Source of the DNA: a virus | Lineage: Duplodnaviria; Heunggongvirae; Uroviricota; Caudoviricetes | Strand: one strand, 5' to 3' | Virus record (IMG/VR): IMGVR_UViG_3300034104_004745 | Span: 1 to 64,000 of that record | DNA: 64,000 nt | Part shown: one piece after another, positions 40,135-57,894 of the stretch | Position numbering within the stretch: position 1 is the stretch's first letter | Layout: each line of letters opens with the position of its first letter | Position numbers and translations under genes: made by a program | The notes under the pieces: model-generated | Seen by the model: the letters and a program-made list of their open reading frames with translations, nothing else | What the model was told of the DNA's origin: nothing | Database searches by the model: none

Positions 40135-40491
40135 ATGCAATTAAGTGTTAATGGTCAAAAGTTTCCAGTTGAGTTAATGTCTTCTCCAGAAGATATCCAA
40201 AAGGGTATGCAAGGTAGAGATAATCTTGATGGTTGTATGGGGTTTAAATTAAAAAAGGGGCACCATACTTTCTGGATGAAAGACTGTTTAATACCGTTGG
40301 ATATTGTATTTGTTTTAAACGGGAGAATCAGTAAAATACATAGGGATTGTCAACCATGCTCTGGTGATGAATGTCAAAGATATCACGGAGCAGCTGATCA
40401 CGTTTTCGAATTCCCATCCGGTGATTGTGAAAGTTTTAAAGAAGGTGATCAAGCTAATCTTTATTTAGGTACAAAATTTAATCCAGCTTAA
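40135..40491 (+). CDS. DUF192 domain protein.
   Basis: GCMGFKLKKGHHTFWMKDCLIPLDIVFV matches the DUF192 core (GLM.R......GMLF....WM.n..ipLDi.F). Confidence 0.55.
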   Translation: MQLSVNGQKFPVELMSSPEDIQKGMQGRDNLDGCMGFKLKKGHHTFWMKDCLIPLDIVFVLNGRISKIHRDCQPCSGDECQRYHGAADHVFEFPSGDCESFKEGDQANLYLGTKFNPA

Positions 40492-40558
40492 GCTTCAACT
40501 TTTAATTTTTTTTCCTTATATTTCTATATAATAAACTATTTATTTAAAAAGAAATACT

Positions 40559-40732
40559 ATGGGATGCGGCTGCAAAAAAAAGAACAATGAACCCCAACAA
40601 ACTACAGAGGGGCAAGCTACAGCAACAGTTGTAACAGATAATCAAACACAACAACAACAACAACAAACACAAGAGCAAGTTGTACAGGTAGCTGTGGCTC
40701 TTCGTGAGATGATTGAAAATAAAGAACTTTAA
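40559..40732 (+). CDS. Small ORF (57 aa) beginning MGCGCKKKN and carrying a poly-Gln tract.
   Basis: ATG at 40559. N-terminal Gly-Cys-Gly-Cys, reminiscent of lipidation or metal-binding motifs. Followed by a weak hairpin and a T-rich tract. Confidence 0.3.
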   Translation: MGCGCKKKNNEPQQTTEGQATATVVTDNQTQQQQQQTQEQVVQVAVALREMIENKEL

Positions 40733-40808
40733 TATATAACGGGCGCCTTTTGGGTTGTCCGTTTATTTTCTTTATTTAAACATATATATAAATAAATAAA
40801 TATTTAAA

Positions 40809-41006
40809 ATGAAAAATAATACTAAACTAACGAGTGTCACCGTAGTGGATGACGTTTACAAAAAATTCAAATTAAAAACTATAGATGGATCTATTAACTT
40901 TCAAAAATTAGTTAACAGAGCAATGGATCTCTATAATAAGGATGACAATTTTCAAGAGAAAATAAATAATCACACTGGGTTATCAAACACCGGATCAAAG
41001 TTTTAA
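40809..41006 (+). CDS. Hypothetical protein (65 aa).
   Basis: ORF at the head of the glycosyltransferase operon. Confidence 0.4.
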   Translation: MKNNTKLTSVTVVDDVYKKFKLKTIDGSINFQKLVNRAMDLYNKDDNFQEKINNHTGLSNTGSKF

Positions 41007-41010
41007 TTTA

Positions 41011-42369
41011 ATGAAGAAAAAAATATTATTGTTATCTGATGATTTAAGAATGTCATCGGGTATCGCTACTATGTCGAAAGAGATTGTGATGGGTACCATT
41101 CACAAATATGATTGGGTGCAGCTTGGCGCCGCAATTAAACATCCTGAGTTCGGTAAAATTGTTGACATAAACGATGATATCCGTAAGAGAACAGGTGTTA
41201 AAAACGCTAATTTAAAAATAATCCCTTACAATGGTTATGGTGATATTGGGGTTTTAAGAAAACTAATTAAGGAAGAAAAACCAGACGCTATTCTCCATTT
41301 CACCGACCCACATTATTGGCAGTGGTTATATGACAATGAGCATGAGATTAGACAACAAGTTCCATTATTGTTTTATCACATATGGGATGATTTGCCAGAT
41401 CCATTATATAATAGAAACTATTATGAAAGTTGTGATTGGTTAGGTTGTATATCTAAACAAACATATGGTATTGTTCATAGAGTTGGTAAATTAGAAAATG
41501 GTTCCACATGGAAACCTTTAGAAAATTGGCAGATCAAATATGTACCTCATGGTATTAACCCAGAAACATTTAAACCATTAGATAAAGTTTCAGATGAGAT
41601 AACACAACTTGTACACGGAGATAAGAAGTATGATTTTGTTCTTTTCTATAATAATAGAAATATCAGAAGGAAACAACCATCAGATGTTATCTATTCCTTT
41701 AAATTGTTTTGTGATAAACTACCAAAAGAAAAAGCTGATAAGTGTTTGTTATTAATGCACACAGCAGCTGTAGATGAAAATGGTACAGACTTACCTGCTG
41801 TTATTGAGGCGCTATGCCCATATGATGTTAAATTCACTGGATTAAAGTTAGAGCAAGATAAGTTAAACGAAATCTATAATCTTGTTGATTGTACAATTAA
41901 CATTGCTAATAACGAGGGATTTGGTTTAACTACTGCAGAATCGTTAATGTCTGGCACACCAATCATCGCTAATGTTACAGGTGGCTTACAAGATCAAATG
42001 GGTTTTGATTTCAGTGAAGATGATTATATTACAATTGGTTCATTACACCACAAGGGGAAATCTAGAAGTTTAGTTCAAGAGGGTGAATGGGTTGAAGCAG
42101 TTTGGCCTGCAGCAATTAATCTAAACGGATCTGTACCAACACCATACATTTTTGATGATCGAGTTAATGATGATGATGTTGCTGACGCTATTATGAAATT
42201 ATATAAAAGCGGAAGAAAGAAAAGAAAAGCAAAAGGATTAAAAGGTAGAGAGTTCATGATGAATAACCTATCAAATAAAATAATGTGTGATAAAATGATT
42301 GAGGGTATTGAAGATACACTTAAGAATTGGGAACCTAAAAAAAGATTTGATTTATATAAAATAGTATGA
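41011..42369 (+). CDS. Glycosyltransferase, family 4-like (GT-B fold).
   Basis: C-terminal NNEGFGLTTAESLMSGTPIIA matches the GT4 E-x7-E region. Confidence 0.7.
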   Translation: MKKKILLLSDDLRMSSGIATMSKEIVMGTIHKYDWVQLGAAIKHPEFGKIVDINDDIRKRTGVKNANLKIIPYNGYGDIGVLRKLIKEEKPDAILHFTDPHYWQWLYDNEHEIRQQVPLLFYHIWDDLPDPLYNRNYYESCDWLGCISKQTYGIVHRVGKLENGSTWKPLENWQIKYVPHGINPETFKPLDKVSDEITQLVHGDKKYDFVLFYNNRNIRRKQPSDVIYSFKLFCDKLPKEKADKCLLLMHTAAVDENGTDLPAVIEALCPYDVKFTGLKLEQDKLNEIYNLVDCTINIANNEGFGLTTAESLMSGTPIIANVTGGLQDQMGFDFSEDDYITIGSLHHKGKSRSLVQEGEWVEAVWPAAINLNGSVPTPYIFDDRVNDDDVADAIMKLYKSGRKKRKAKGLKGREFMMNNLSNKIMCDKMIEGIEDTLKNWEPKKRFDLYKIV

Positions 42370-43625
42370 GTAAACCGTTTTTATTATTTAGAGGGCCGGT
42401 ACAAACTAGAAGTGGGTATGGCGCGCATTCAAGAGACCTTTTACAGGCATTGTATGAAATGAATTCATACGATATTAAAATTGATAGTTGTTCTTGGGGG
42501 TCAACACCACTGACAGCATTAGAGAAAGATAATGTTTTTCATAAGTGGATTGAATCAAATATCATTTCATCATTAGCAATACAACCAGATGTGTATGTTC
42601 AAGTAACCGTACCAAACGAATTTCAAAGAGTTGGTAAGATTAACATCGGAATAACTGCTGGAATTGAAACAACTGTCGCACCTAAATCTTGGGTTGATGG
42701 TTGTAATAAAATGGATATGATTATTACTACATCACAATTTTCAAGTGAGGTATTAATGAGTACTGTTTACAATGAGACAGATAATGTTACAGGTAAATTG
42801 ATCAAACAACATAAGATTGAAAAACCTATAAAGGTTCTTTTTGAAGGTGTTCATAATGACATATTCAATAATGAATATAATGATATTGATTTGAATATCA
42901 ATGAAGATTTCGCATACCTTTTTGTTGGCCATTGGTTGAAAGGTAATTTAGGCCAGGACAGAAAAGATGTGGGTATGTTAATTAAATGTTTTGTTGAAGC
43001 ATTTAAAAATGAAGAAGATAAACCAGCATTGATTCTTAAGACTTCATCAGCAACTTTCTCAATAAAACAAAGAGAAGACTTTGCTAAAAAGATAAAAGAG
43101 CTTGTTGGAAACATTGAGAACCCTCCATCGATTTATCTATTGTTTGGTGAATTAACAGATAAAGAAATGAACAATCTTTACAATCACCCTAAAATTAAAG
43201 CAATGATTAGTCTCACCAAAGGTGAGGGATTCGGTAGACCTTTATTAGAATTTACTATGACTGGTAAGCCTGTGATCGCATCTAACTGGTCGGGGCACAA
43301 AGACTTCTTACCAATGGATAAAGGGATTATGATTGGTGGTAAACTAAATGAGGTAGATGAAAGCGCTATTGACGACTTTATTTTAAAGGGTTCAAAATGG
43401 TTTACAGCAAATTATAATGAAGCCGCTGAAGTTATGAAGATTGTGAAGAGCGACTATCAAAAGTTTTTAGATCGTGCTGAAAATCTGAGAATAGAGAATT
43501 CAACTAAGTTTAGTTTTCAGAGAATGATTGAAGAATTTGAAAAGTTATTACCTAAAACAGTTTCACAAGAAGAATCACCAAAACAAAAACCAATTAATTT
43601 ACCTAAATTAAATAAAATAAAATAG
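42366..43625 (+). CDS. Glycosyltransferase, family 4-like (GT-B fold).
   Basis: KGEGFGRPLLEFTMTGKPVIASNWSG GT4 motif. 4-nt overlap with the upstream GT. Confidence 0.7.
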   Translation: MSKPFLLFRGPVQTRSGYGAHSRDLLQALYEMNSYDIKIDSCSWGSTPLTALEKDNVFHKWIESNIISSLAIQPDVYVQVTVPNEFQRVGKINIGITAGIETTVAPKSWVDGCNKMDMIITTSQFSSEVLMSTVYNETDNVTGKLIKQHKIEKPIKVLFEGVHNDIFNNEYNDIDLNINEDFAYLFVGHWLKGNLGQDRKDVGMLIKCFVEAFKNEEDKPALILKTSSATFSIKQREDFAKKIKELVGNIENPPSIYLLFGELTDKEMNNLYNHPKIKAMISLTKGEGFGRPLLEFTMTGKPVIASNWSGHKDFLPMDKGIMIGGKLNEVDESAIDDFILKGSKWFTANYNEAAEVMKIVKSDYQKFLDRAENLRIENSTKFSFQRMIEEFEKLLPKTVSQEESPKQKPINLPKLNKIK

Positions 43626-43626
43626 A

Positions 43627-43923
43627 ATGGCTAAGAGTAAAACAAAAAAACCGTGGGTGGTTGACTCTATGTTTAGATTAGAAGCACCACAAAGTGCTAG
43701 TTTCATAAGCATACCAAATAATGGAACCTTTAAAGATTGTGAATGGTGTTTTCAATTTGATGATAGTGACCCATTTGTATTCGCATCAACAAAACCTTTT
43801 TATGATGGGAAAGACGCTAAAATAAGTTTCACACTTACAAACCAAACAAACACAAATTTGGTCTTTAAAGACTCTAATACCGGCAAAGAATTTAAAATAT
43901 TCGCAAGAGAAAAACAGTTATGA
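43627..43923 (+). CDS. Hypothetical protein (98 aa) within the glycan operon.
   Basis: ORF with tight coupling (1-nt gap upstream, 4-nt overlap downstream). Confidence 0.45.
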   Translation: MAKSKTKKPWVVDSMFRLEAPQSASFISIPNNGTFKDCEWCFQFDDSDPFVFASTKPFYDGKDAKISFTLTNQTNTNLVFKDSNTGKEFKIFAREKQL

Positions 43924-44543
43924 AAATCAGTTTCGCAATCACAGTATGTAATGAATTAGAAGAAATTAAAAAGTTGGTTCCCTTCTTAATAGAAAACAAG
44001 AGAGCCAATGATGAAGTTGTTATTTTATTTGATAGTAAAAATGGTGATGACCAAGTCATAGATTATTTGTTGCAGTTTAATAAATTACCAAATGTACAAA
44101 CCTGGAAAGGATTTGATTTCAATAACGATTTTGCGGAATGGAAAAATAAGTTAAATGAATATTGTACTGGTGATTATATTTTTCAATTAGATGCTGACGA
44201 ATTAATAAATGAGTATATGGTTAAAAATCTACATGAAATTATCGAATCAAATGAAGAGATCGATTTATTCTTTTTACCTAGAATCAATACAGTAAAAGGA
44301 ATAACCGAAGAGCACATAAGAAGATGGAGATGGAATGTGGATGATAATGGCAGAGTTAACTTCCCTGATTACCAGGGTAGAATATATAAATCTAATTTAA
44401 AATGGGGCGGTAAAGTGCATGAAAGAATTGTAGGTGCTAAGTTTTATTCTTTGTTACCAACAGAAGAAATCTATTCGCTATCACACCATAAAACAATTAG
44501 TAGACAAGAAAAACAAAATGATTATTATGAAAACATTAAATGA
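43920..44543 (+). CDS. Glycosyltransferase-like protein (GT-A/GT2-like, DxD motif DADE).
   Basis: N-terminal FAITVCNE and QLDADE resemble GT2. Weakly supported. Confidence 0.4.
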   Translation: MKISFAITVCNELEEIKKLVPFLIENKRANDEVVILFDSKNGDDQVIDYLLQFNKLPNVQTWKGFDFNNDFAEWKNKLNEYCTGDYIFQLDADELINEYMVKNLHEIIESNEEIDLFFLPRINTVKGITEEHIRRWRWNVDDNGRVNFPDYQGRIYKSNLKWGGKVHERIVGAKFYSLLPTEEIYSLSHHKTISRQEKQNDYYENIK

Positions 44544-45069
44544 GATTTATGAAAAGTATCAATCACCGGAAGGTCATGGTGATAAAGGAACAGCACACAC
44601 ATACATAGATGAGTATGAAAGATTGTTAGCCCCATATAGAAAAAACTCAATCGTTCTTGAAATAGGTTTGTGTGAGGGTGAGTCGATGAGAATGTGGGAA
44701 GAATATTTTATCGATTCAAAAGTTATTGGTGTTGATATCGATAGTAGATACTTGATTAGTTTAATTAACGAGCCTGGACATAATATTATTATTGCTGACG
44801 CAACTAAAAATGATATTGTAGATAAGATTGATGAAAAAATGTTTGATGTTTTAATTGATGATGGTAGTCATAGATTAGCTGATCAGTTAAGCACATTTCA
44901 AATTTTTAAAAATCGAATTAAACCTGGTGGTATCTACATTATAGAAGATGTTGTCGAATTAGATCGAGTAAAAAATATCTTCTTAGGACTTCACAATAAC
45001 GTAGAAATTATCGATAATAGACATATAAAAGATAGACACGATGATGTGTTAATAGTATATAAATTTTAA
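44518..45069 (+). CDS. Class I SAM-dependent methyltransferase (Methyltransf_24/CmcI-like sugar O-methyltransferase family).
   Basis: DKGTAHTY...SIVLEIGLCEGESMRMW (motif I), then VIGVDID. The start is re-called to an ATG at 44518 or 44527. Confidence 0.6.
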   Translation: MIIMKTLNEIYEKYQSPEGHGDKGTAHTYIDEYERLLAPYRKNSIVLEIGLCEGESMRMWEEYFIDSKVIGVDIDSRYLISLINEPGHNIIIADATKNDIVDKIDEKMFDVLIDDGSHRLADQLSTFQIFKNRIKPGGIYIIEDVVELDRVKNIFLGLHNNVEIIDNRHIKDRHDDVLIVYKF

Positions 45070-45072
45070 ATT

Positions 45073-46068
45073 ATGAAAGTATTAATTACAGGTATTGCTG
45101 GACTACTAGGTTCCAGATTAGCAGATTACATCGTTGAAAATCATCCGGACGTTCATATAGTTGGTATTGATGATTTGAGTGGTGGGTATTATGAAAACAT
45201 TAACCCTAAGGTTCCGGAATTTAGAAAATTAAATTTAGTTACAGGTGATTTAGAAAGTTGCTTTGAGGAACATAAATTTGATTACGTCTATCATTTTGCA
45301 GCATATGCTGCTGAAGGGTTGTCACCATTTATTAGACAATACAATTATGAGAATAATTTGGTTGCTACAGCTAGAATAATTAACCAGTGTATTAAACACG
45401 AAGTAAAAAGATTAGTTTTTACTTCAACAATGGCGGTATATGGTCATGGTAATGGTAATATATTTGATGAATCTCAAATACCTCAACCGATAGATCCATA
45501 TGGTATTGCGAAATATGCGTGTGAAATGGATATTCAAGTTGCTGGTGAACAGCATGGGTTAGATTGGTGTATCATTCGTCCACATAATGTTTATGGTATT
45601 AAACAAAACATCTGGGATAAATACAGAAATGTGTTAGGTATTTGGATGTATCAACATATGAATGGCGAGCCAATGACAATCTTTGGTGATGGTGAACAAA
45701 AAAGAGCATTCAGTTATATTGATGATTGTTTAGATGGTTTGTGGAAAGCTTCTCAATTGCCACAATGCTCAAAGGAAGTTATTAATCTTGGTGGAACAAA
45801 ACATTACACGATCAATGAAGCTAACGCAGTATTAAAGCAAGTAATCAAAGATGGTGAAACTGTTTATAAAGAACAAAGACACGAAGTTAAAGCTGCCATA
45901 CCAACTTGGGCGAAATCTGTTGAGCTACTTGGTTATGAAGACAAGACATCTTTATATGATGGTTTAAAAACCATGTGGGAGTGGGCACAGAAACAACCTA
46001 ACAGAGAAAGATTTGTATGGGAATCATATGAATTAGATAAAGGAATTTATAGCTTTTGGAAAAAATAA
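45073..46068 (+). CDS. NAD-dependent nucleotide-sugar epimerase/dehydratase (extended SDR).
   Basis: Rossmann GIAGLLGSRL (GxxGxxG) and catalytic YGIAK (YxxxK). Confidence 0.8.
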   Translation: MKVLITGIAGLLGSRLADYIVENHPDVHIVGIDDLSGGYYENINPKVPEFRKLNLVTGDLESCFEEHKFDYVYHFAAYAAEGLSPFIRQYNYENNLVATARIINQCIKHEVKRLVFTSTMAVYGHGNGNIFDESQIPQPIDPYGIAKYACEMDIQVAGEQHGLDWCIIRPHNVYGIKQNIWDKYRNVLGIWMYQHMNGEPMTIFGDGEQKRAFSYIDDCLDGLWKASQLPQCSKEVINLGGTKHYTINEANAVLKQVIKDGETVYKEQRHEVKAAIPTWAKSVELLGYEDKTSLYDGLKTMWEWAQKQPNRERFVWESYELDKGIYSFWKK

Positions 46069-46072
46069 GAAT

Positions 46073-46654
46073 ATGAAAAAAATAGAATTTATTATCCCAA
46101 CGTATAATAGACCAGATAAATTAATGGTTATGTTATCATCAATAAAAGCACAATCTGTTGATTTATGGAAAGTGCATGTTGTTGCTGATGCTGTATATGA
46201 TGGGTATCAAGAAATAAAAGATTACTTTAAAAATGATGAGAGATTTATATTCTCTGAATTAAATGGCCCACACAAAGATTGGGGGCACACAGCTAGAAAC
46301 TATGGCTTAGAAAGAGCAGAAGAAGACTGGGTGGTGATGTCTGGTGACGATAACTATTATGTACCAATTTTCGTTGAGGCTTTTTTAGAATCGATTAAAT
46401 ATAGAAAAGATGTTAACTTTGTTCATTGTAACTTAGTACACAATTGGATTAACAATGAATACATCGGGTTATTATCAAGACCTCAAGTAAATGGTATTGA
46501 TATTGGTAACTTTATGACTAAAACAAAATTTGCGAAACAGATGAGATTAGATGTTACTAAAGTAAACGCTGACGGTATCTTTGTAGAAGAATACCTAGAA
46601 AAATTTAAGGGTAACATTATTCACATTCAAAAAATATTATATGTCCATAACTAA
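46073..46654 (+). CDS. Glycosyltransferase family 2 (GT-A fold).
   Basis: N-terminal EFIIPTYNRPDKL is the canonical GT2 start. SGDDNYY region. Confidence 0.6.
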   Translation: MKKIEFIIPTYNRPDKLMVMLSSIKAQSVDLWKVHVVADAVYDGYQEIKDYFKNDERFIFSELNGPHKDWGHTARNYGLERAEEDWVVMSGDDNYYVPIFVEAFLESIKYRKDVNFVHCNLVHNWINNEYIGLLSRPQVNGIDIGNFMTKTKFAKQMRLDVTKVNADGIFVEEYLEKFKGNIIHIQKILYVHN

Positions 46655-47762
46655 CATAACATTCGTTCTTGCTGTACTTGATAAATTAGATTTAACTAAG
46701 AACTGTTATTCTAGAATACGAGATCTATATCCCACCACACCATTTGTTATAAGTAGTGGTGGTTCAAGTGATGGTACAAAAGAATGGTTGTTAGAAATGT
46801 CCGAGAAAGATGAGAACCTAACAATTTTTCATGATGATGATAGGTTAGCATTTTCAGAAACTTACAACTCAGGAATCAAAATGGTCGATACCGAAAAATT
46901 AGTTTTGATTCACAATGATATGGTTATTGGTGAGGGGTTTTTAGAAGCTATAGAAAGGTTATTAAAACCAAATATGATGTTATCCTATACAACAATAGAA
47001 CCACCAATTTTTAAAGGACATCAAAGACCCGGAAAGGTATTAATTGATTTAGGTTCATCGTTTGATGATTTTGATTATTTTAATTTCAATGCGTATGTTA
47101 GTACACATAACAATAACGATGTTCTATATGATGGCGCAGTTTTCTTTATGAGTGGTTACAAAAAGATGTTTGAAGATGTTGGTTTTTTTGATGGGTTTAG
47201 CTTTGTACCTTGTTTCTGTGAAGATGATGATTTCATAATCAGGGCTAAGTTAAAAGGATATGAATTAAAAACTTGTGAGTCCGCGATCGTATATCATTTT
47301 GTTTCCCAAACGTCTAGATTTAGCGAAGAGTTTAAGAAAAATAGAGTTACCCATGAGGTTTCATCTATTAGAAACTTCGTAAGAAAATGGGGGATAACTA
47401 TAACTGTCTTTAATGAGCTACGCTACTGGGAAGAAAAAGAATTTAAGTATAAAACATTTTCAATGGGATTAATTACAAGAAACAAAAAAAGATTAATGGA
47501 TCTTGAACCGTTTTTTGATAAGATTGATCTGGGTGAAATACCTGAAGAATATATTGAGAATGAGCAAAAAAGAACTAGATACGATATTAGATCTAAATTT
47601 ACATTAACAGATACTGTGGATGTTGTTATAACTGAGGTTGATGAATTTACTGATGAAGATCTACAGACATTACGTAGACTAAGATTATCTATACCATATT
47701 ATGAACCAGGTGAATACCAAATAGGTAATATGTTGATACAAATAAAAAAGGAGCTTAATTAG
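46641..47762 (+). CDS. Glycosyltransferase family 2-like protein (373 aa).
   Basis: FVLAVLDK...YNSGIK...LIHNDMV architecture like GT2. Weaker match than 46073..46654. Confidence 0.45.
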   Translation: MSITNITFVLAVLDKLDLTKNCYSRIRDLYPTTPFVISSGGSSDGTKEWLLEMSEKDENLTIFHDDDRLAFSETYNSGIKMVDTEKLVLIHNDMVIGEGFLEAIERLLKPNMMLSYTTIEPPIFKGHQRPGKVLIDLGSSFDDFDYFNFNAYVSTHNNNDVLYDGAVFFMSGYKKMFEDVGFFDGFSFVPCFCEDDDFIIRAKLKGYELKTCESAIVYHFVSQTSRFSEEFKKNRVTHEVSSIRNFVRKWGITITVFNELRYWEEKEFKYKTFSMGLITRNKKRLMDLEPFFDKIDLGEIPEEYIENEQKRTRYDIRSKFTLTDTVDVVITEVDEFTDEDLQTLRRLRLSIPYYEPGEYQIGNMLIQIKKELN

Positions 47763-47776
47763 CTCCTTCTTTTTTT
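47748..47776. terminator. Bidirectional rho-independent terminator AAGGAGCTtaattAGCTCCTT plus T7. It is embedded in the overlapping 3' ends of the convergent genes 46641..47762 and 47755..48237.
   Basis: Perfect 8-bp stem. T-run on the plus strand and A-run (T on the minus strand) on the other side. Both stop codons lie inside the hairpin. Confidence 0.6.
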
Positions 47777-48237
47777 ACTTCTTTTTTAATCAGTTTAAAT
47801 AGTACCTGATATTTGTCTTTAGACTTACCAGCCTCTTTTAAATCTTCCTTAGTGATTTCAGGATACTCTAATTCAATTTCTTGATTTAAAAGTGTACCAT
47901 ATTCTTTATCAAATTCTATATATTTTGGATTGTACTCACCACCGATAACATTATCATTCTCGTCTTTAATTTCTTTAAGGTACATTTTAACCATGATGCC
48001 ACCCTTACCGTCATCTTCACCATGCTTCTTGATTAAATCGTCTCTTAGACCATCAACCTTAGTTCTTTCACCTTTAAGAACTGATGAGAAATCACTTAAT
48101 TCATATTTTAAAATGATTGATAGGTTTTGTTTGGTAAATCCTTCGAAAATCACTTCACCGTTTTTTGGGTCAACATATCCATTAATTTCGGTTTCTAATT
48201 GTAAAACTTCTCCTAATTTCAATTTAATTTTTTCCAT
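47755..48237 (-). CDS. Hypothetical Lys/Glu-rich protein (160 aa).
   Basis: ORF with TATATTATATAC upstream. Confidence 0.5.
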   Translation of the reverse strand: MEKIKLKLGEVLQLETEINGYVDPKNGEVIFEGFTKQNLSIILKYELSDFSSVLKGERTKVDGLRDDLIKKHGEDDGKGGIMVKMYLKEIKDENDNVIGGEYNPKYIEFDKEYGTLLNQEIELEYPEITKEDLKEAGKSKDKYQVLFKLIKKEVKKEGAN

Positions 48238-48290: not shown

Positions 48291-49298
48291 TTATAAAACC
48301 GTCAAAATAGCATAAGTTAACATAAAAGATATCCATATAACTAAAGCTTTTAGATAAGTTAAAAATCCAGTATGAAAGTACTTTTGACCTATCGGTAAAC
48401 ACTTATGTGATGGTGAAATTAGATATGCTGAATACTCTAATGTAAAGAATAAAACAAAGTACTGCATACCAAACACACTAGTTAATAAACTAACAATACC
48501 TGCATATTTTGCTGATGATCCAAGTAAGAATGATGCTACGAATCCTAACACAGAAACAATAAGAATATTTGACGGTGTACTATACTGTTTGATTATTAAT
48601 TCAATTTGTGAATAATATGATCCAACTAGGTTACCAAGAATGATTACTAAAGCAACTATCCAAATCAATTCCCAGTTAACATAGCCCATCAACTTACCCC
48701 AACTCTTAGAGTGATATACCAACCATAGTGTGAACCCAGTAAAGAATCCAAAATAATAATCAGTAAAGAAAACACACATCATGATGGTAACCAAGAATGG
48801 TATAACCACAAGATATATGTTCTTCCAATTAATTGGATCATCTTTAACTTCAATATCGATCTCATCATCATCTAATGATAGTATATAATAACTGATATAT
48901 AATCCTGAGATTAATAACAACGGCCAGATATATGACATAAACTGCACGTAAGTTAAACTTAGTACAGCCATTGGTATAATAACTGTTTTCTCTAACGGTG
49001 ACCATAGATAATAATGATGTGTTGCAAGGTAATCAATGATACCAAACTTCTTACGTTTCTTATTATCGACTGGTGCAATACTATTCAGCATAGATGCTGA
49101 CAATGCTACACGACCAGGTATAGGTAGAATACCACCGAATAGTGATACTAAGAATACCACCATCTTTTTAGATTTAACTTTTTGTTTAAGTAATCTAAAG
49201 ATGTCCATAAGGTACCCTCTTTCTTTGAGGATACCGGTTACGAACATAATGAATATTAAGTAGACAAGAAACTCTTGTCCTTTGATTAAAATCTCCAT
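48291..49298 (-). CDS. Polytopic inner-membrane protein (335 aa, about 9-10 TM segments); Wzy/EpsG-like polymerase or transporter candidate.
   Basis: Multiple hydrophobic segments. Overlaps the start of the OMP gene by 13 nt. Confidence 0.55.
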   Translation of the reverse strand: MEILIKGQEFLVYLIFIMFVTGILKERGYLMDIFRLLKQKVKSKKMVVFLVSLFGGILPIPGRVALSASMLNSIAPVDNKKRKKFGIIDYLATHHYYLWSPLEKTVIIPMAVLSLTYVQFMSYIWPLLLISGLYISYYILSLDDDEIDIEVKDDPINWKNIYLVVIPFLVTIMMCVFFTDYYFGFFTGFTLWLVYHSKSWGKLMGYVNWELIWIVALVIILGNLVGSYYSQIELIIKQYSTPSNILIVSVLGFVASFLLGSSAKYAGIVSLLTSVFGMQYFVLFFTLEYSAYLISPSHKCLPIGQKYFHTGFLTYLKALVIWISFMLTYAILTVL

Positions 49299-50170
49299 GC
49301 AAATATAATTGTGGTTCTAGATAATTTTGCGTCTTGATTAAGTCCTGGCATGTGTTCAATATTTAAATAACCTTTGTTACTAAAACGATATTGAACTAGA
49401 GGACCAAGATACCATTCTTGTGAACCACCATCAAAGTCGTTGTATCTAAACATATGTGAAACACCTAATGTTAAATCATTATTAATGATGTTAGCATATG
49501 ATGCGGTGTATGCATATTCATCTTCACGAAGTTCTTTGTTTCTAGATAAATTACCTTCATAGATTGCGTTGAAGCCCCATATACCACTTTTACCAATTCT
49601 ATCACCTAATAATAATTTAGGTTCAATACCCCAGTGACCGTCTAACATTTTGGTTTCCCAATACAATGTAGGATTACCCCATAGTTTGCCCCAATCAGCT
49701 AAAGCGTATCGAAACTCCCAGGAGAATCCTCTCCATTTAAATTGTTTATCACCATTGTAACCATCATACACAGTGTGTGAATATAAATCTAATTGCAATC
49801 GTTTACCTAAACCAAATGTAAACTCATCTCTCATTCTTATTTGAGCTGGACCATTTCTTCTTTGTCTAATATCAAACCACTTCTCATACATTGCTGTACC
49901 TGGAGGATTCATTACGTAAACTCTTGTAGATGCAAACATTCTCATTGTAGTCCAAAGTGGTTGACCATAAGGACCGACTTTGGTCATCAATGGTACTTTC
50001 TTTGCTGTAACAACGATCTCTTGTAATTGATTAGGGACACTGTCCGTTTGAACTTTTAAGGATTGTTCTGAACCTTTCTGAATTGCGCTACTACTATACT
50101 GTCCAAATGACATAGTGGTAGTCAACAATGACACTAACATTAGCGATAGTGTTTGAATTGTTTTTCTCAT
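49286..50170 (-). CDS. Outer-membrane beta-barrel protein with a signal peptide (294 aa).
   Basis: MRKTIQTLSLMLVSLLTTTMSFGQ signal. EIVVTAKK plug-like motif. Alternating amphipathic beta strands. C-terminal ...IFAWRF ending in an aromatic residue. Confidence 0.55.
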   Translation of the reverse strand: MRKTIQTLSLMLVSLLTTTMSFGQYSSSAIQKGSEQSLKVQTDSVPNQLQEIVVTAKKVPLMTKVGPYGQPLWTTMRMFASTRVYVMNPPGTAMYEKWFDIRQRRNGPAQIRMRDEFTFGLGKRLQLDLYSHTVYDGYNGDKQFKWRGFSWEFRYALADWGKLWGNPTLYWETKMLDGHWGIEPKLLLGDRIGKSGIWGFNAIYEGNLSRNKELREDEYAYTASYANIINNDLTLGVSHMFRYNDFDGGSQEWYLGPLVQYRFSNKGYLNIEHMPGLNQDAKLSRTTIIFAWRF

Positions 50171-50237: not shown

Positions 50238-50903
50238 TTATTTACCAATTAAAAATATACCTAAACCATTCCAAAAATCATCTGGATCTTCACCAGATGT
50301 GAACAGTTGTCTTGAGTGTAAAATGAATAAATTATTTTCCTCAACAAACTTTTCAAACGCACCACTATCCCAGTTCCAATCATCCATTATTATGATTGTT
50401 TCTTTTGATATGATTGGTAGAATGTTTTTTAAAGCAATGTATTGATCATGAAATTTAGTTTCACCATCATAAAAAATAATGTCGGGATTTGGTAGTGTTT
50501 TAAAATCAAACAATTGATAGTCGGTTTTATAAACAGATATCTTATCAACGTCTCCAAATTTTTTTACGTTAGATAAAAATTCTTCTTGTGGTAACACATC
50601 GATATTGTGTTTATAGTAGTTCCCCATTTTTTGACTAACCCCGCGTGGTGTTAGATTGGGTGACATAAAATTATCAATTGCTATTGAGTAGATATCATTA
50701 CCATATATTGCAGAACAAAATGTTGCGCCACGAAAAACACCTATCTCTAGATAGGTTGCACCATCAATGTCACAAATATTATTTAGAAACGATCTAACTT
50801 TATTACTGGTGATTCCATGAATATCCAAAATGTCTTGAGTTAATTTTGATACTTCAAGTTTACCCCATTCAATTGAATCGTCTATATGTTTAACTAAGTC
50901 CAT
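50238..50903 (-). CDS. Class I SAM-dependent methyltransferase (Methyltransf_24/CmcI-like), paralogous in fold to 44518..45069. The start is re-called to the ATG at 50903; the track starts at a GTG.
   Basis: GATYLEIGVFRGATFCSAIYGNDIYSIAIDNF motif I region. Confidence 0.55.
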   Translation of the reverse strand: MDLVKHIDDSIEWGKLEVSKLTQDILDIHGITSNKVRSFLNNICDIDGATYLEIGVFRGATFCSAIYGNDIYSIAIDNFMSPNLTPRGVSQKMGNYYKHNIDVLPQEEFLSNVKKFGDVDKISVYKTDYQLFDFKTLPNPDIIFYDGETKFHDQYIALKNILPIISKETIIIMDDWNWDSGAFEKFVEENNLFILHSRQLFTSGEDPDDFWNGLGIFLIGK

Positions 50904-51927
50904 ATGATTTTTTCTTATGATCTGCAACAATATCACAGTAATTACAATCCCAACATTGGAATTTACATTTCTTTATTTTATTTCTCCAACCCTTAAGTTC
51001 TTCGTGTGGTATACCATCCAAATATATCTCAGATGTTTTAGATAAAACACTTTTACCCGCAGCGTACGAATCAACAATCTCCATAGTTTCATCTAATCGA
51101 TTGAAGCTATCTCTACCATGCATTTTGAATACATCAATATATTCTAAGAATTCGTCAAACTCTTCTTTGAATGGTGGTATAGTTCCTGTCTTAAAAAAGA
51201 AAGCATTAATATCTTTCTCCCATTTGTGTTCACAAGTTACTTTAGAGATCTCGTGATGAAAGTATGGTAACTCATTATTAGTTCTAAGATTGTTATATGA
51301 ATAATGTTCATCCATGACTGGGCACCTTCCTAAACAACCTTCATTAACTAGTAATGATATTTTTACATATCTACCTTTCTCTTCGTAATATTTTAACTGA
51401 GCTCTTTTGATATTTTTTAATTCTTCAACATCTCTCATTAAAATCCTATCAAGATTAATGTAATCAAATCCTTGATCGGCGTTATACCAAAAGTCTTGTC
51501 CAGTTGCCACTTTTCTTAATATGGTATTTTTAATTTCCATCTCTGGAAAATGTTTCTTCAATCCCATTGCAACCCAATGACCATGTGGAATAGTTATACA
51601 TCTTAAACCCTTTTCGTATAAAGGTTTTAGATTATCAATAAACAATTTATAGTTATCGAATCTAGGAGAAACGTTTATGTTGTTGAATGTTGCACTGATG
51701 GAGATACCTAATGCTTTTTGAATGATCATTGCATTATCAAACACAATGTCTCTGTCTTCATCTCTGAACACCGCACCCATCGCATCTTGTGTAAATGGTG
51801 GGACTCTACAGGTAAAATAAATGTCATATATCCATTCCTTATTTCTTTCTAAGAACGGATAAAATTTATTCATGAACATATCTTCCGACATCATCGGATT
51901 AAGTGGTATAGAGAATATCTTTTTCAT
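50890..51927 (-). CDS. Cys-rich protein (345 aa) with a C-terminal CKFQCWDCNYC cluster; possible Fe-S or zinc partner of the adjacent radical SAM enzyme.
   Basis: EGCLGRCP and CKFQCWDCNYCD motifs. 1-nt overlap with the radical SAM gene. No canonical CxxxCxxC. Confidence 0.5.
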   Translation of the reverse strand: MKKIFSIPLNPMMSEDMFMNKFYPFLERNKEWIYDIYFTCRVPPFTQDAMGAVFRDEDRDIVFDNAMIIQKALGISISATFNNINVSPRFDNYKLFIDNLKPLYEKGLRCITIPHGHWVAMGLKKHFPEMEIKNTILRKVATGQDFWYNADQGFDYINLDRILMRDVEELKNIKRAQLKYYEEKGRYVKISLLVNEGCLGRCPVMDEHYSYNNLRTNNELPYFHHEISKVTCEHKWEKDINAFFFKTGTIPPFKEEFDEFLEYIDVFKMHGRDSFNRLDETMEIVDSYAAGKSVLSKTSEIYLDGIPHEELKGWRNKIKKCKFQCWDCNYCDIVADHKKKSYGLS

Positions 51928-52928
51928 TATTTGTTACCTTCTAGACATCCACCACATATACCATTACAATCGCTCTTATAAAAGACACAATCTAAACAGT
52001 CTTGCGGTATAGTATAATTTTTATGATTATCGGTGTAAAGTTTATCAAACTCATCCCTTAAATCTAATATACCACTTTTAGCTGATATTTCCAAAACATT
52101 ATCAATCTTTACCTTATCTTGTAGTGGATAACAATGAATTGAACTTCCATCCGGGAAGACATCCAGTGGCATAAATCCACATATAGTATCATATTCAGGG
52201 ATTTTAAATGTTGCAAAGTTCAAAGAATTTTCTAAAACAGCTTTCTTTGTTTTACCCTCCCATAAACATGGCGGAACTTGACAATCTGAAGTGATCTTAA
52301 TACCGTTATATAAGCCGAATTTAAGGATCTTAGTAATCTCTGCACCCATTTCCCTATTATTGATAAGATAGGTCCCTGTGAGGTCTAATCCGACCCTTAT
52401 TGCGTTTATTTTACCATCAAGCTCGTGGTATAACCATTTGATGTATTCATAGAAGTTTCTATCCTTCCAATCTTTGGACATCGTTACAGCTAAATAAAGT
52501 CTAGGATTAGTATCAAACCCCCAGGTATTGGCATATGCTTTGTAAATTTCTAGGTAGTTCTTTTTAAATAAAACTATTCTATTTTTTTCATTAAGCTCTG
52601 CAGCATTAGGAAACACCCAGCGGATATTTTTGATATTTTCTATTAGATAATCTCTTGTTGTTTTACTAAACAAAAAATTACTAACAAGATTCACCTTAAT
52701 ATTTTTAGAAAAGAGGTGATCCAAAATACCAATAAAATTTGAATGCTGTGTTGGTTCCCCACCTAGAATTGTTATTTCTTCTTGGGGTGATTGTAAATTA
52801 TAATGGTTGATAAGTTTATCAACCATTTCTATTGACATTTCGCCTAAGGTATGTTTTAGTCTTGCGTCTTCTTTGGTGAAGCAGAATGAACATCCTTTAG
52901 CACATGTACCATTAATTGCTAAATTCAT
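51927..52928 (-). CDS. Radical SAM enzyme with a C-terminal SPASM-like Cys-rich domain.
   Basis: CAKGCSFC (C-x3-C-x2-C), the GGEPT SAM-binding motif, and C-terminal CLDCVFYKSDCNGICGGC. Confidence 0.75.
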   Translation of the reverse strand: MNLAINGTCAKGCSFCFTKEDARLKHTLGEMSIEMVDKLINHYNLQSPQEEITILGGEPTQHSNFIGILDHLFSKNIKVNLVSNFLFSKTTRDYLIENIKNIRWVFPNAAELNEKNRIVLFKKNYLEIYKAYANTWGFDTNPRLYLAVTMSKDWKDRNFYEYIKWLYHELDGKINAIRVGLDLTGTYLINNREMGAEITKILKFGLYNGIKITSDCQVPPCLWEGKTKKAVLENSLNFATFKIPEYDTICGFMPLDVFPDGSSIHCYPLQDKVKIDNVLEISAKSGILDLRDEFDKLYTDNHKNYTIPQDCLDCVFYKSDCNGICGGCLEGNK

Positions 52929-54488: not shown

Positions 54489-55604
54489 CTATTGCCTCCA
54501 ACCACAGTGCCCTGAAGATGTTCCAGCGTTAACTGCTGGATTTAACCCAGTCACACTAGAAGTACCGGTATCCGCAGCATAGTAGAACTTCCAACTAACA
54601 TTGTTTTGACCACCCCCATCATAACAACCCAACATATACTGCCAATCTTGTCCCAACGTAAAGTTTTCTTCACCACAGTTAGGATGAGGTTTAGATACAT
54701 TCCCAATATTAGTATCGTTAGCATTGCTCCATCTTCTTAAATTATATCCTCCATTATAACTTCCCTCATTACCACAATATCCCTTTCCATGTTTGGAACT
54801 AATACCTTTTTGTTGTGCATGCGCACCCCATTGAGTAGATGATGTTGGGGTTTCATTTGAAAAATTAAATTTTATTCCAGCAGATGTTGTCCACGCATAC
54901 CCAAAATTTTCATCGAAAAATGCACCACCACCATCAGAACCATTAATTGATGTTACACCAAACCCACTTACATAACTTTCATTTGTAAGATTAAATTTTT
55001 CTATTGTGGTCGATCCTCCCGAAATTAGATAAGCCATTTCAGTTTCTTTTTGCATGGTTGCAACGTCACTTCTAGCAATACCCGTATTGAATTTTGTTTG
55101 ATGTGCATAATTTGTATCTGTCATCATATTAATTGCTGATGTCCTTGTACCATGAACACTATCGGGGCCCTTCCACGCACCATCATCATTAACCGACCAT
55201 TGAAAGAAAATATTTTTACTACAAGCACCAGATGTATATGATATAGGGTAATCTAATATTTCACCAATATGGGTTGTTTGATCAATAAGATTCACTGTTT
55301 TGTGTACGTTTTTCCATGGTGAAGCGTCTTTATAACCGCCAGCTAAATAAGAATAATTAATCACTTGTCTATATCTGAAAGCTGTTGGTTGTGTTTCTTG
55401 GGCAGCGATTCTTTCCCAACCGTTATCAATATTTGATACACCAGTATAAAGCATTAAATAACTACTTCCACTAGTTGATGTTTCAAGGTATAATGAACCT
55501 GAACGAGGGTTTGATGGTCTGTTAGCTCTAGTACCTCTAGGAGGTCTATTAACAACTCTATCTGACCTTAAACTACCGCTTACTTCTAAATTCTCGTATA
55601 ACAT
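54489..55604 (-). CDS. Adhesin-like tail-fibre tip protein, paralog 1 of 3 (371 aa; conserved N-terminus SGSL...PRG.R.NRPS.P..GSLYLE and C-terminus GHCGWRQ).
   Basis: About 60-70% identity to the two downstream paralogs. Sits directly 3' of the long tail-fibre gene. Gly-rich, with many N-x-S/T sites. Confidence 0.65.
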   Translation of the reverse strand: MLYENLEVSGSLRSDRVVNRPPRGTRANRPSNPRSGSLYLETSTSGSSYLMLYTGVSNIDNGWERIAAQETQPTAFRYRQVINYSYLAGGYKDASPWKNVHKTVNLIDQTTHIGEILDYPISYTSGACSKNIFFQWSVNDDGAWKGPDSVHGTRTSAINMMTDTNYAHQTKFNTGIARSDVATMQKETEMAYLISGGSTTIEKFNLTNESYVSGFGVTSINGSDGGGAFFDENFGYAWTTSAGIKFNFSNETPTSSTQWGAHAQQKGISSKHGKGYCGNEGSYNGGYNLRRWSNANDTNIGNVSKPHPNCGEENFTLGQDWQYMLGCYDGGGQNNVSWKFYYAADTGTSSVTGLNPAVNAGTSSGHCGWRQ

Positions 55605-55618
55605 ATTATATTTTTATT

Positions 55619-56725
55619 TTATGATCTCCAACCACAATGGCCTGATGATGTTCCTCCATTTACTCCCGGCGCTAATCCGCTTACACTAGTAGTTCCAGTA
55701 TCAGTTGTGTAAGAAAACTTCCAACTTGTATTATTTTGTGCGCCATCATAATTTCCTAACATATATTGATGATCTTGCCCCATGGTAAAATTTTCTTCTC
55801 CACAGTTTGGATGTGGTTTTGAAACATTACCAATGTTAGTATCATTCGCGTTGCTCCATCTTCTTAGATTGTAACCCCCAGCATAACTACCCTCATTACC
55901 TGCATATCCTTTACCAACCTTAGAACTAATACCCTTTTGTTGAGAATGTGCTCCCCACATTCCAGTTGATGTAAATGTTTCGGAAGCAAAACTAAATTTT
56001 ATACCTGCCGCAGACGTCCACCCATAACCAAAATTTTCGTCAGAAAATGCCGAACCACCATCAGAACCATCAATTGTTGTTAAGTTGAACCCAGTCATTA
56101 TCGTTTCATTACTTAAATCAAACTTCTCAACAGTTGAGCTACCTCCAGTAAACATATATGCAAATTCTGTTTCTTTATGCATTGTACCTAAATCACTTCT
56201 ATTAGACGTGGTATTGAATCTAGCACTGTGAGCATAATTTGTGTCATTAGCCATATTAACCGCCGATGTTCTACTACTATGTACATCTCCGGGACCTTTG
56301 AATGTGTTGTCAGTGTTAACTGACCACACAAAGAAAATATATCTACTACAAGCTCCCGATGTATAAGATGCTGGATAATCCAATAACTCACCAATGTGTG
56401 ATGTTTGGTCTGTGGAATTTATTGTTTTATGTACGTTTTTCCATGGAGAAGAATTCTTATATCCACCAGCAAGATATGAAACAGCAATAATTTGTCTAAA
56501 CTTAAAACCAACATTAGAATTAACTTGTGAGGAAACTCTAACCCAACCATCGTCACCATTACTTAGTCCAGTATAGACCATAAGAAAACTACCACTAGCC
56601 GCTTCTTCAAGATACAAAGATCCTGTGACGGGGCTTGATGGCCTATTCCCTCTTGATCCTCTTGGTGGTTTCGATACACCTTGAACTCTTAAGGAACCAC
56701 TAATTTCTATATTATCGTGACGCAT
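55619..56725 (-). CDS. Adhesin-like tail-fibre tip protein, paralog 2 of 3 (368 aa; ...GHCGWRS).
   Basis: Tandem paralog. Confidence 0.65.
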   Translation of the reverse strand: MRHDNIEISGSLRVQGVSKPPRGSRGNRPSSPVTGSLYLEEAASGSFLMVYTGLSNGDDGWVRVSSQVNSNVGFKFRQIIAVSYLAGGYKNSSPWKNVHKTINSTDQTSHIGELLDYPASYTSGACSRYIFFVWSVNTDNTFKGPGDVHSSRTSAVNMANDTNYAHSARFNTTSNRSDLGTMHKETEFAYMFTGGSSTVEKFDLSNETIMTGFNLTTIDGSDGGSAFSDENFGYGWTSAAGIKFSFASETFTSTGMWGAHSQQKGISSKVGKGYAGNEGSYAGGYNLRRWSNANDTNIGNVSKPHPNCGEENFTMGQDHQYMLGNYDGAQNNTSWKFSYTTDTGTTSVSGLAPGVNGGTSSGHCGWRS

Positions 56726-56743
56726 ATTTTATAAATACTATTT

Positions 56744-57877
56744 TTAATTTCTCCAACCACAATGGCCTGATGATGTTCCCCCATTTACCCCAGGAGCTAA
56801 TCCAGAAGGATTAACAACACCTGTATCTGTTGCGTAAACAAATTTCCAGCTTGTGTTATTTTGTAAACCATCATAATTTCCTAACATATATTGGTGGTCT
56901 TGTCCCATAGTAAAGTTTTCTTCCCCACAGTTTCCATGTGGCTTTGCTACGTTACCAATATTGGTTTCATTAAACACATTCCATCTTCTCAAATTATAAC
57001 CACCATTATAATTCCCCTCATTTCCAGCATATCCTTTACCCCATTTGGAACTAATACCTTTTTGTTGACCGCTAGCACCCCACTGTTGGTTATTTGTAAA
57101 TGTGTCTGTTGCAAAATATAATTTGTTACCACTTTCCGACCCGTAACCATATCCATAATTTTCGTCTGAAAATCCAGAAGCACCTAATGAACTGGTAATA
57201 GATGTTTTTAATGTTAAGTATGGTTGCATATTAGGATAATATACACTATACATAACTTCATTAGTTAAATTGAATTTTTCAACTGTGGCCACACCACCAC
57301 CAAATACCCACGCAAATTCTGTCTCTTGAAATAATGTTCCAAGGTCATCCCTAGCGTTTGCTAAATCCCATTTTGATTGGTGCGCATATGCGGTTTCATT
57401 AACCATATGAACCCCAGTTGTCCAAGTTGAATGTATTTGTGTTGCCGATTTCCATGCGCCATCCGTATTAGTTGACCAAACAAATAATATAGATTTACTA
57501 CAAGCTCCGGATGTATACGATGCTGGATAATCCATTAATTCACCTAAGTGAACTGTTTGATCTGTCGCGTTAGTTGTTCTATGAACATTTTTCCAAGGAG
57601 AAGAATCTTTATAACCGCCAGCCAAGTATGAAAAGTTAATAATTTGTCTATATAAAAAACCAATTCTATCTGTATTTTGTGAGCCAACAGGTTCCCATCC
57701 ATCATCTCTATTTGATGCGGCTGTGTATGTAACAACAAAACTTCCACTGCTAGATTCTTCAAGATAAAGAGACCCTATTTCTGGGCTAGATGGTCTATTA
57801 GCTCTTGGCCCTCTAGGTATTATATATTGTCCACTAACATCTAAAGAGCCACTAACAATTACATTTTCTCTTAACAT
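56744..57877 (-). CDS. Adhesin-like tail-fibre tip protein, paralog 3 of 3 (377 aa; ...GHCGWRN).
   Basis: Tandem paralog with a divergent middle segment (VMYSVYYPNMQPYLTLKTSITSS). Confidence 0.65.
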   Translation of the reverse strand: MLRENVIVSGSLDVSGQYIIPRGPRANRPSSPEIGSLYLEESSSGSFVVTYTAASNRDDGWEPVGSQNTDRIGFLYRQIINFSYLAGGYKDSSPWKNVHRTTNATDQTVHLGELMDYPASYTSGACSKSILFVWSTNTDGAWKSATQIHSTWTTGVHMVNETAYAHQSKWDLANARDDLGTLFQETEFAWVFGGGVATVEKFNLTNEVMYSVYYPNMQPYLTLKTSITSSLGASGFSDENYGYGYGSESGNKLYFATDTFTNNQQWGASGQQKGISSKWGKGYAGNEGNYNGGYNLRRWNVFNETNIGNVAKPHGNCGEENFTMGQDHQYMLGNYDGLQNNTSWKFVYATDTGVVNPSGLAPGVNGGTSSGHCGWRN

Positions 57878-57894
57878 ACTTTAATATACGTATT

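Follow-up and report, generated by a model that had tools for sequence, protein, structure and literature searches.

The 64,000-nucleotide (nt) stretch of DNA analyzed here (positions 1 to 64,000 of IMG/VR record IMGVR_UViG_3300034104_004745, a virus of the Caudoviricetes; henceforth the window) encodes, with little room for doubt in our view, a genuine 12-stranded outer-membrane β-barrel that is translationally coupled to a polytopic inner-membrane protein of the DUF401 family (Table 1). The two proteins probably act together, and we propose, with a probability of about 0.5, that they form an uptake route installed by the phage, in which an outer-membrane channel gated by TonB and a secondary carrier in the inner membrane would serve the enzymes encoded next to them. 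Envelope proteins of phages, like auxiliary genes for nutrient uptake, are already known; what is new is the coupled outer-plus-inner-membrane cassette with an exchangeable outer component, together with a TonB-linked family of 12-stranded barrels, and neither of these was found described in the searchable literature.

The barrel and its inner-membrane partner

A reading of the DNA made from its letters alone, without database searches (the sequence-only reading), had described two genes overlapping by 13 nt, one for an inner-membrane protein with about 10 transmembrane (TM) segments and the other for a β-barrel protein with a signal peptide and a terminal …AWRF. All of this is borne out by the present analysis, with both open reading frames (ORFs) lying exactly as described. 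A search of 5.8 billion proteins recovered 1379 relatives of the barrel and 1216 of the DUF401 protein (E<=1e-3), nearly all of them without a name and of conserved length, and both ORFs are genuine conserved genes.

The signal peptide of the 294-residue barrel precursor ends in the Bacteroidota-style form (…TTTMSFG|Q) that had already been pointed out, an assignment supported by the matching AQ|Y or SQ|V cleavage pattern in its relatives. The mature protein closes with …IIFAWRF, its terminal …AWRF with the final Phe being the β-signal. An AlphaFold2 model built on a 49-sequence alignment has a mean predicted local distance difference test score (pLDDT) of 89.7 and a predicted TM-score (pTM) of 0.78; it leaves residues 24-55 disordered, gives residues 60-92 a well-defined conformation (pLDDT >=95 from residue 60 on) and folds residues 93-293 into 12 β-strands. 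Foldseek searches of the PDB with this model returned outer-membrane barrels exclusively, led by FapF (E 3.5e-9), 4rl8 (E 5.6e-7) and NanC. The signal peptide, the terminal …AWRF, the 12-strand model and top fold matches that are all barrels thus concur in identifying an outer-membrane β-barrel.

At the level of sequence, the family stands apart. The barrel protein itself matched no Pfam, NCBIfam or PHROG model, and PDB sequence searches with both proteins and with the family profiles gave no meaningful match. PF13557 (Phenol_MetA_deg, COG4313) is matched by 15 of the 49 aligned relatives, with a best E-value of 3.4e-9, and the family is perhaps best described as a divergent sister group of PF13557/COG4313 rather than a clear member. 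An exhaustive HMMER search resolved it into 333 clusters at 50% identity. Its alignment shows strong conservation across the barrel body, not confined to the N-terminus, where a block with the consensus G-x-Y-x-Q-P-x-W-T…R-x-F…T-R-V-Y-V precedes the strands; in the window protein its near-invariant positions are G66, Q70, P71, W73, R77, F79, R83 and Y85, all within the segment of residues 59-92.

Two groups of known channels offer the closest comparisons. The COG4313/PF13557 channels, such as Pput2725 of Pseudomonas putida (4rl8), are likewise 12-stranded and monomer-sized with an N-terminal segment ahead of the barrel, and they are regarded as passive channels for hydrophobic compounds. In contrast to them, the window family adds a TonB-box-like strand, the invariant motif ExRYALADWGKxWGNPT and TonB gene neighbors, none of which, to our knowledge, has been described for COG4313 channels. 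FapF (5o65/5o68), the best fold match (TM-score 0.62-0.71), is also 12-stranded and is gated by an N-terminal plug element. However, identity to it is just 12-14%, there is no fap operon and no coiled-coil trimerization domain is evident; moreover, the cargo that FapF exports is unfolded protein, and no link between FapF and TonB is described.

The 335-residue partner matches PF04165 (DUF401) at 36.5 bits against a gathering cut-off of 24 (E 4.8e-9, profile positions 60-385 of 393) and phrog_14035 with E 3e-83, and a hydropathy scan finds 9-10 hydrophobic segments in it. Against TIGR00529, the AF0261 equivalog model, it scores 50.3 bits (E 2e-13), below the curated cut-off of 378 bits, as befits a relative of that model rather than an equivalog. 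We take the DUF401 family to be placed in the ion-transporter (IT) clan, a placement supported by weak CitMHS matches for the window protein and many of its homologs, and the protein is probably a member of the IT superfamily. Phage lineages at 37-45% identity share the invariant motifs GxLPxxGRV, HHYYxWSPxEK, GSSxK and SPxHKC, a basic and polar pattern that would be typical of anion-binding carriers. The CitMHS citrate-metal symporters of the same superfamily likewise have about 10 TM segments and conserved basic residues; unlike these carriers, the phage DUF401 form has no counterpart to the initial ~60 profile positions of Pfam, and no DUF401 member with a known substrate was found.

The two genes are joined by their overlap. 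The barrel gene ends …ATA TTT GCA TGG AGA TTT TAA, and the start codon of the DUF401 gene lies within its final codons (…GCATGGAGATTTTAA…), such that ATGGAGATTTTAA is common to both. This arrangement indicates that translation of the two is coupled; the identical overlap and junction recur in 57 of 80 related viral loci and also in L001 and L004 (loci are cited by their L numbers). The only space upstream of the barrel gene in the window is a gap of 67 nt, and an A-rich leader, without a Shine-Dalgarno sequence, precedes the pair. The best cellular relatives of the barrel, at 54-57% identity, come from contigs of Bacteroidota metagenome-assembled genomes (MAGs); this identity, the A-rich leader and the Gln that follows the cleavage site together suggest a Bacteroidota host for the phage. 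Downstream, a bidirectional hairpin closes both the minus-strand operon and the convergent plus-strand glycan cluster. A scan for sigma-70 promoters was not above chance, with 33 sites against 38.7 expected.

That the window is phage DNA is evident from the PHROG families covering the neighboring genes, from the 1032-residue protein with its M23 peptidase domain of tape-measure or tail-lysin type, and from the tail-fiber and sheath genes that flank close relatives on contigs of up to ~320 kb. The structural genes flanking the pair have a distant kinship to T4-like cyanomyovirus genes. Among cultured phages (INPHARED), neither nucleotide nor protein search matched the barrel, and plasmid searches with both proteins gave no match. 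A reading of the pair as virion proteins was rejected.

Table 1. Features of the window, the barrel-DUF401 pair first; positions count from the first letter of the stretch.
Feature	Coordinates	Strand	Basis and remarks
Barrel gene	49286-50170	-	ORF, 294-aa (amino-acid) precursor; stop codon 49286-49288
Signal peptide, aa 1-23	50102-50170	-	read from sequence (MRKTIQTLSLMLVSLLTTTMSFG|Q); cleavage SFG|Q, no lipobox Cys
TonB-box-like strand LQEIVVTAKK, aa 49-58	49997-50026	-	alignment; flexible N-terminal extension, pLDDT ~50
Conserved N-terminal segment, aa 59-92 (VGPYGQPLWTTMRMF..TRVYV)	49895-49996	-	alignment and model; candidate plug or periplasmic latch
Barrel body, aa 93-294	49289-49894	-	12 strands; invariant motif E-x-R-Y-A-L-A-D-W-G-K-x-W-G-N-P-T; β-signal …AWRF
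Gene overlap, 13 nt (ATGGAGATTTTAA)	49286-49298	-	barrel stop / DUF401 start
DUF401 gene	48291-49298	-	ORF, 335 aa; polytopic inner-membrane protein, putative secondary carrier
Methyltransf_24 S-adenosylmethionine (SAM)-dependent methyltransferase	50238-50936	-	PF13578
345-aa cysteine-rich U32-like TIM-barrel protein	50890-51927	-	most constant neighbor of DUF401
Radical SAM enzyme, Cys-rich C-terminus	51927-52928	-	PF04055, E 5e-9
160-aa soluble protein, last gene of the operon	47755-48237	-	phrog_1401; in most related loci, downstream of DUF401
Bidirectional intrinsic-terminator-like hairpin	47744-47772	both	12-bp stem, then T-run on both strands
Glycan island	40135-47762	+	two large glycosyltransferases, two family-2 glycosyltransferases (GT2), NAD-dependent epimerase/dehydratase, methyltransferase
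Three tandem phrog_1417 paralogs (371, 368, 377 aa) beside a 1951-aa giant protein	54489-63750	-	paralogs distantly related to cyanomyovirus genes
1032-aa protein with M23-type metallopeptidase domain	24316-27414	-	tape-measure and endolysin PHROG matches

Linkage of the two genes across phages

The association of the barrel with DUF401 was counted in 80 viral loci that carry the barrel; the two occur together in about 70 of these, in three gene orders. The barrel is followed by DUF401 in 57 loci; in 12 others the order is reversed and the DUF401 belongs to another lineage (37-40% identity), and two have the order barrel…p345 (the U32-like protein)-MT24 (the methyltransferase)-DUF401. DUF401 is missing from just four or five of the 80 barrel loci with a long enough flank.

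The strongest line of evidence comes from 12 sister phages that are without the barrel, in which the slot between the methyltransferase and DUF401 is occupied by a protein of 585-591 residues. Its first 56 residues, comprising a signal peptide, a linker and the strand LKEVVVVGG, are 48% identical to the window barrel, and the remainder is unrelated. It gives a weak Plug match at the right position (E 0.013), its sole PDB profile match is a weak one to the heme receptor PhuR through an NPxL(x)PE motif (E 0.095), and these weak matches are ordered as in a TonB-dependent receptor; the last residue of the protein is aromatic or hydrophobic, and the stop codon of its gene directly adjoins the start of DUF401. 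The protein, which belongs to no Pfam family and may be a small, highly divergent TonB-dependent receptor, is found at L183:4223-5998, L225:4244-6001 and 10 further loci. The outer-membrane partner is hence exchangeable between two architectures, with the TonB-box N-terminus and the junction with DUF401 being kept. Such an exchange would be difficult to account for if the outer-membrane protein and DUF401 did not cooperate, and we consider it probable that the barrel and DUF401 act together. In one diverged phage (L250:5126-5998), the slot before DUF401 holds a 290-residue protein with a prepilin-type N-terminus (MKRGFTLIELLVVIAIISIL…), of a kind expanded in Planctomycetota and Verrucomicrobiota.

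Other phage genes are known to place proteins in the host envelope during infection, among them lambda Lom, the PA-2 Lc porin and the cyanophage PstS, the last being the classic case of a phage boosting nutrient uptake by its host. Whereas each of these is one component that works within a system of the host, the outer and inner components are here encoded together and coupled. If the proposed uptake route is correct, the virus would contribute the outer- as well as the inner-membrane part of a solute route, not just a single accessory, and DUF401 would acquire a testable role.

The TonB-box-like strand and the proposed solute route

The segment EIVVTAKK (residues 51-58 of the precursor), which the sequence-only reading had taken as plug-like, is indeed present in the extension ahead of the barrel, but is better read as a TonB-box-like strand. 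A hydrophobic-x-hydrophobic strand is found in 63% of 126 family representatives (29±4% in shuffles), in two thirds of cases at 18-21 residues ahead of the QPxW anchor. The strand takes the forms EVIVTAKK, EVQVSAEA and KEVLVTGE in Bacteroidota and Ignavibacteriota relatives, and (W)ELPxVxVxG in those from Verrucomicrobiota and Planctomycetota. The window version, QEIVVTAKK, fits the (D/E)-x-hydrophobic-V-V-T-A style, this being a short and degenerate motif. Both in style and in its position shortly after the signal peptide, within a flexible extension, the strand looks like a TonB box.

The genomic neighborhoods of the cellular relatives point in the same direction. Across 185,579 species genomes we identified 423 loci with relatives of the barrel, the majority of them from Planctomycetota, Verrucomicrobiota and Bacteroidota. 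Of the 69 bacterial loci with sufficient flank, about 28 have, immediately downstream and on the same strand, a gene with a Pfam-confirmed TonB C-terminal domain, and TonB_C is the sole recurrent family among the downstream neighbors of cellular barrels. This coupling to TonB was found for the cellular relatives only. In two loci (L018 and L028), a canonical TonB-dependent receptor lies directly upstream of the barrel relative; in the first of these the TonB box of the receptor, ETVVITAD, resembles the barrel motif KEVLVTGE. Further cellular neighbors include two-component regulators, an EntS-like protein of the major facilitator superfamily (MFS) and, after TonB, a chromate-type anion transporter.

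Several arrangements can be recognized among these small cellular loci (L010-L089; e.g., L021:5911-7594, L048:5938-9505 and L018:3749-8283), none of which was found described. In some, the barrel is followed by TonB, often with a divergent histidine kinase, a sigma-54 response regulator and the EntS-like MFS protein. A planctomycete locus shows the order barrel-TonB-ChrA. Loci from Ignavibacteriota and Bacteroidota include a TonB-dependent transporter (TBDT), in the order TBDT-barrel-(squalene-cyclase-repeat protein).

The TBDTs proper (e.g., FecA, BtuB and PhuR; PF07715 and PF00593) therefore call for comparison. Like them, the window barrel has a TonB-box-like strand after the signal peptide; its relatives are linked to TonB in genomes, and it is interchangeable with the ~590-residue TBDT-like protein of the sister phages. 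In contrast to them, it lacks a Plug domain and is built of 12 strands, not 22. According to a 2024 review of TBDTs (PMC11658791), a typical TBDT is a 22-stranded barrel, and Tsx, which is 12-stranded, is a non-TBDT without a TonB box; a literature search for 12-stranded proteins with a TonB box found none. A broader view, which we put forward tentatively and hold to be more doubtful than the uptake route itself, is that the barrel family constitutes a new class of TBDT built on a 12-stranded barrel and widespread in Planctomycetota, Verrucomicrobiota and Bacteroidota, one member of which phages would have captured and wired to DUF401 as a self-contained import line across both membranes, powered by host TonB and feeding a phage pathway of iron-sulfur (Fe-S) and SAM enzymes. 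Were this so, the family of ~330 clusters would widen the definition of TBDTs beyond 22-stranded barrels.

The uptake route that we propose may be envisaged as follows. The barrel precursor would be exported by Sec and cleaved after SFG, and the β-barrel assembly machinery (BAM) of the host would insert it into the outer membrane as a 12-stranded channel, which the conserved segment of residues 59-92 probably occludes or latches. Host TonB-ExbBD would then bind the N-terminal strand and gate the channel; the host system is invoked because a TonB gene was looked for in the window and none was found. Having crossed the periplasm, the solute would be moved into the cytoplasm by DUF401 acting as a secondary carrier for the same solute. 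The cassette forms part of a late-operon module together with the U32-like Fe-S protein, the SAM methyltransferase and the radical SAM enzyme, to which it would probably supply a substrate or cofactor. Our guess, given the invariant Arg, Lys and His residues of DUF401 and the weak similarity to CitMHS, is that the substrate would be a small anionic solute, for example, a carboxylate or a metal-carboxylate chelate.

Several observations weigh against this route. The strand taken as a TonB box is short and degenerate, and its binding of TonB is putative. The barrel matches neither the Plug nor the TonB_dep_Rec model of Pfam and, being 12-stranded instead of 22-stranded, is no classical TBDT. The carrier role of DUF401 derives from family and clan assignment, since a literature search for functional studies of DUF401, PF04165 or TIGR00529 found none, no solved homolog was found, and hhalign detected no internal repeat between the two halves of the protein. 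Furthermore, DUF401 is present in at least 558 viral contigs as against 91 with the barrel, most of them without any outer-membrane partner, the cellular relatives of the barrel never adjoin DUF401, and the barrel stands alone in some phages (L135). The occurrence of each protein without the other implies that the two can work independently. Finally, the direction of transport could be outward, given that FapF, the closest match in structure, serves secretion.

These distributions bear directly on a different explanation, namely that the two auxiliary genes have nothing to do with each other and happen to occupy the same insertion hot-spot in a late operon. It draws on the roughly sixfold greater frequency of DUF401 than of the barrel in viral contigs, on the lack of DUF401 beside cellular barrels, and on the other occupants of the methyltransferase-DUF401 slot, which elsewhere holds a halogenase, 2-oxoglutarate (2OG) oxygenases or a prepilin-like protein. 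However, mere co-residence in a hot-spot does not sit well with the conservation of the start/stop overlap, with an adjacency that has been re-created in different orders with different DUF401 lineages, or with a second TonB-box outer-membrane protein of unrelated body in exactly the same position. We accordingly rate independence as rather improbable.

The possibility of outward transport can be developed into an export route, in which the neighboring radical SAM, U32-like, methyltransferase, halogenase and 2OG-oxygenase enzymes would make or tailor a small molecule or a peptide, DUF401 would export it and the barrel would release it across the outer membrane. Carriers of the IT superfamily can export, as ArsB does. 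The closest fold, FapF, is a polypeptide secretion channel, the cassette always lies among tailoring-type enzymes, and TonB-dependent secretion has a precedent in Oar/PopC (PMC11658791). Against this, TonB-box and TBDT-like proteins are overwhelmingly importers; no conserved precursor-peptide gene lies beside the pair, with the window offering only the 67-nt gap upstream; and the ABC (ATP-binding cassette) or MFS exporters typical of natural-product clusters are not present. We regard export as an unlikely, if coherent, alternative to uptake.

The sequence-only reading had also raised superinfection exclusion or receptor masking. In the form considered here, the TonB box of the barrel would titrate host TonB, or the barrel would mask a receptor, such that competing phages or bacteriocins could not enter by way of TonB, and DUF401 would be an unrelated membrane moron. 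Phage outer-membrane proteins often serve exclusion, as exemplified by Lom, Cor and Llp, and the solitary barrels of some phages, together with the retention of precisely the N-terminal TonB-box segment when the body is swapped, would be in keeping with such a role. However, PADLOC gave no match for the pair, the tight coupling to DUF401 is retained across three gene orders and even where the TBDT-like protein, still adjoining DUF401, takes the place of the barrel, and strong conservation extends beyond the N-terminus to the barrel body. Exclusion survives in our assessment as a quite improbable rival of the uptake route.

The adjoining enzymes and other features of the window

The sequence-only reading had missed the genomic partners of the pair, viz., the radical SAM enzyme, the 345-residue U32-like Fe-S protein and the methyltransferase, which lie upstream on the same strand and run into it. 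The U32-like protein has seven invariant Cys residues with a C-terminal CX3CX2CX2C motif, and in many phages it is fused to the methyltransferase; the JGI (Joint Genome Institute) label of this fusion is YrrM-type O-methyltransferase. The unit of the two accompanies DUF401 in the majority of the 79 viral DUF401 loci that were examined, and lies beside it in cyanophage S-H25, the Ralstonia jumbo phage RP31 and the marine contigs L171 and L172. In loci of the cyanophage type, the space between the methyltransferase and DUF401 is taken up by a tryptophan halogenase or 2OG oxygenases, and an outer-membrane protein is absent from it. Because of these loci, and because DUF401 loci without the barrel are the commoner ones, we view the barrel as an accessory that was added, in one host range, to an older module of enzymes plus carrier.

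The module parallels the bacterial route to 5-hydroxyuridine (ho5U) and 5-methoxyuridine (mo5U), which combines a U32 protein (TrhP) with YrrM/TrmR. By analogy, this suggests a phage-directed hydroxylation and methylation of a nucleobase or aromatic compound. The locus is a hot-spot for tailoring-type enzymes: in other phage lineages, the barrel or DUF401 is time and again adjoined by flavoenzymes resembling tryptophan halogenase and by Asp/Arg-hydroxylase or 2OG-Fe(II) oxygenases (L001:6209-10518, L244:4328-5848). On a contig of a Syntrophaceae MAG (L170:917-7238), a homolog of the U32-like protein lies upstream of a TauE/TSUP-family transporter and of sulfate-activation genes (CysD-like, and CysN/adenosine 5'-phosphosulfate (APS) kinase); here a different transporter in a comparable position would hint at an anion- or sulfur-related substrate. 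If the proposed uptake route holds, transporters would be linked to an unstudied Fe-S and methyltransferase module that is common to cyanophages, Ralstonia jumbo phages and the present group of aquatic phages, and it could be put directly to the test what these abundant phages take up or modify in the course of infection.

On the other side of the terminator-like hairpin lies the glycan island, to which the sequence-only reading had tied the pair as a Wzx/Wzy-like protein with an outer-membrane exporter; a spanin-like lysis pair was its further suggestion. The glycan cluster does adjoin the pair in the window and in 32 of 41 close relatives. Yet it is convergent with the pair, on the opposite strand and behind the terminator, and it is not near the pair in the diverged lineages, nor in L004, where tail fibers follow the pair. 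Pfam and PHROG gave no matches to Wzx, Wzy, Wza or lysis families. Spanins, moreover, are small and carry a single TM segment or a lipid anchor; a 335-residue protein with 10 TM segments and a 294-residue, 12-stranded barrel without a lipobox correspond to them neither in size nor in fold. Both suggestions are thus largely refuted, and we ascribe a very low likelihood to them.

The glycan island is the sole plus-strand block of the region, the GC skew flips its sign there, and the gene content of the island varies among close relatives. On the minus strand, the arrangement of the three phrog_1417 paralogs beside the giant protein recurs in the marine contigs L171 and L172, where the module is flanked by three paralogs of ~345 residues and a protein of >2200 residues. 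The 1032-residue protein with the M23-type domain is probably a tail-associated cell-wall hydrolase, as judged from its domain and family matches.

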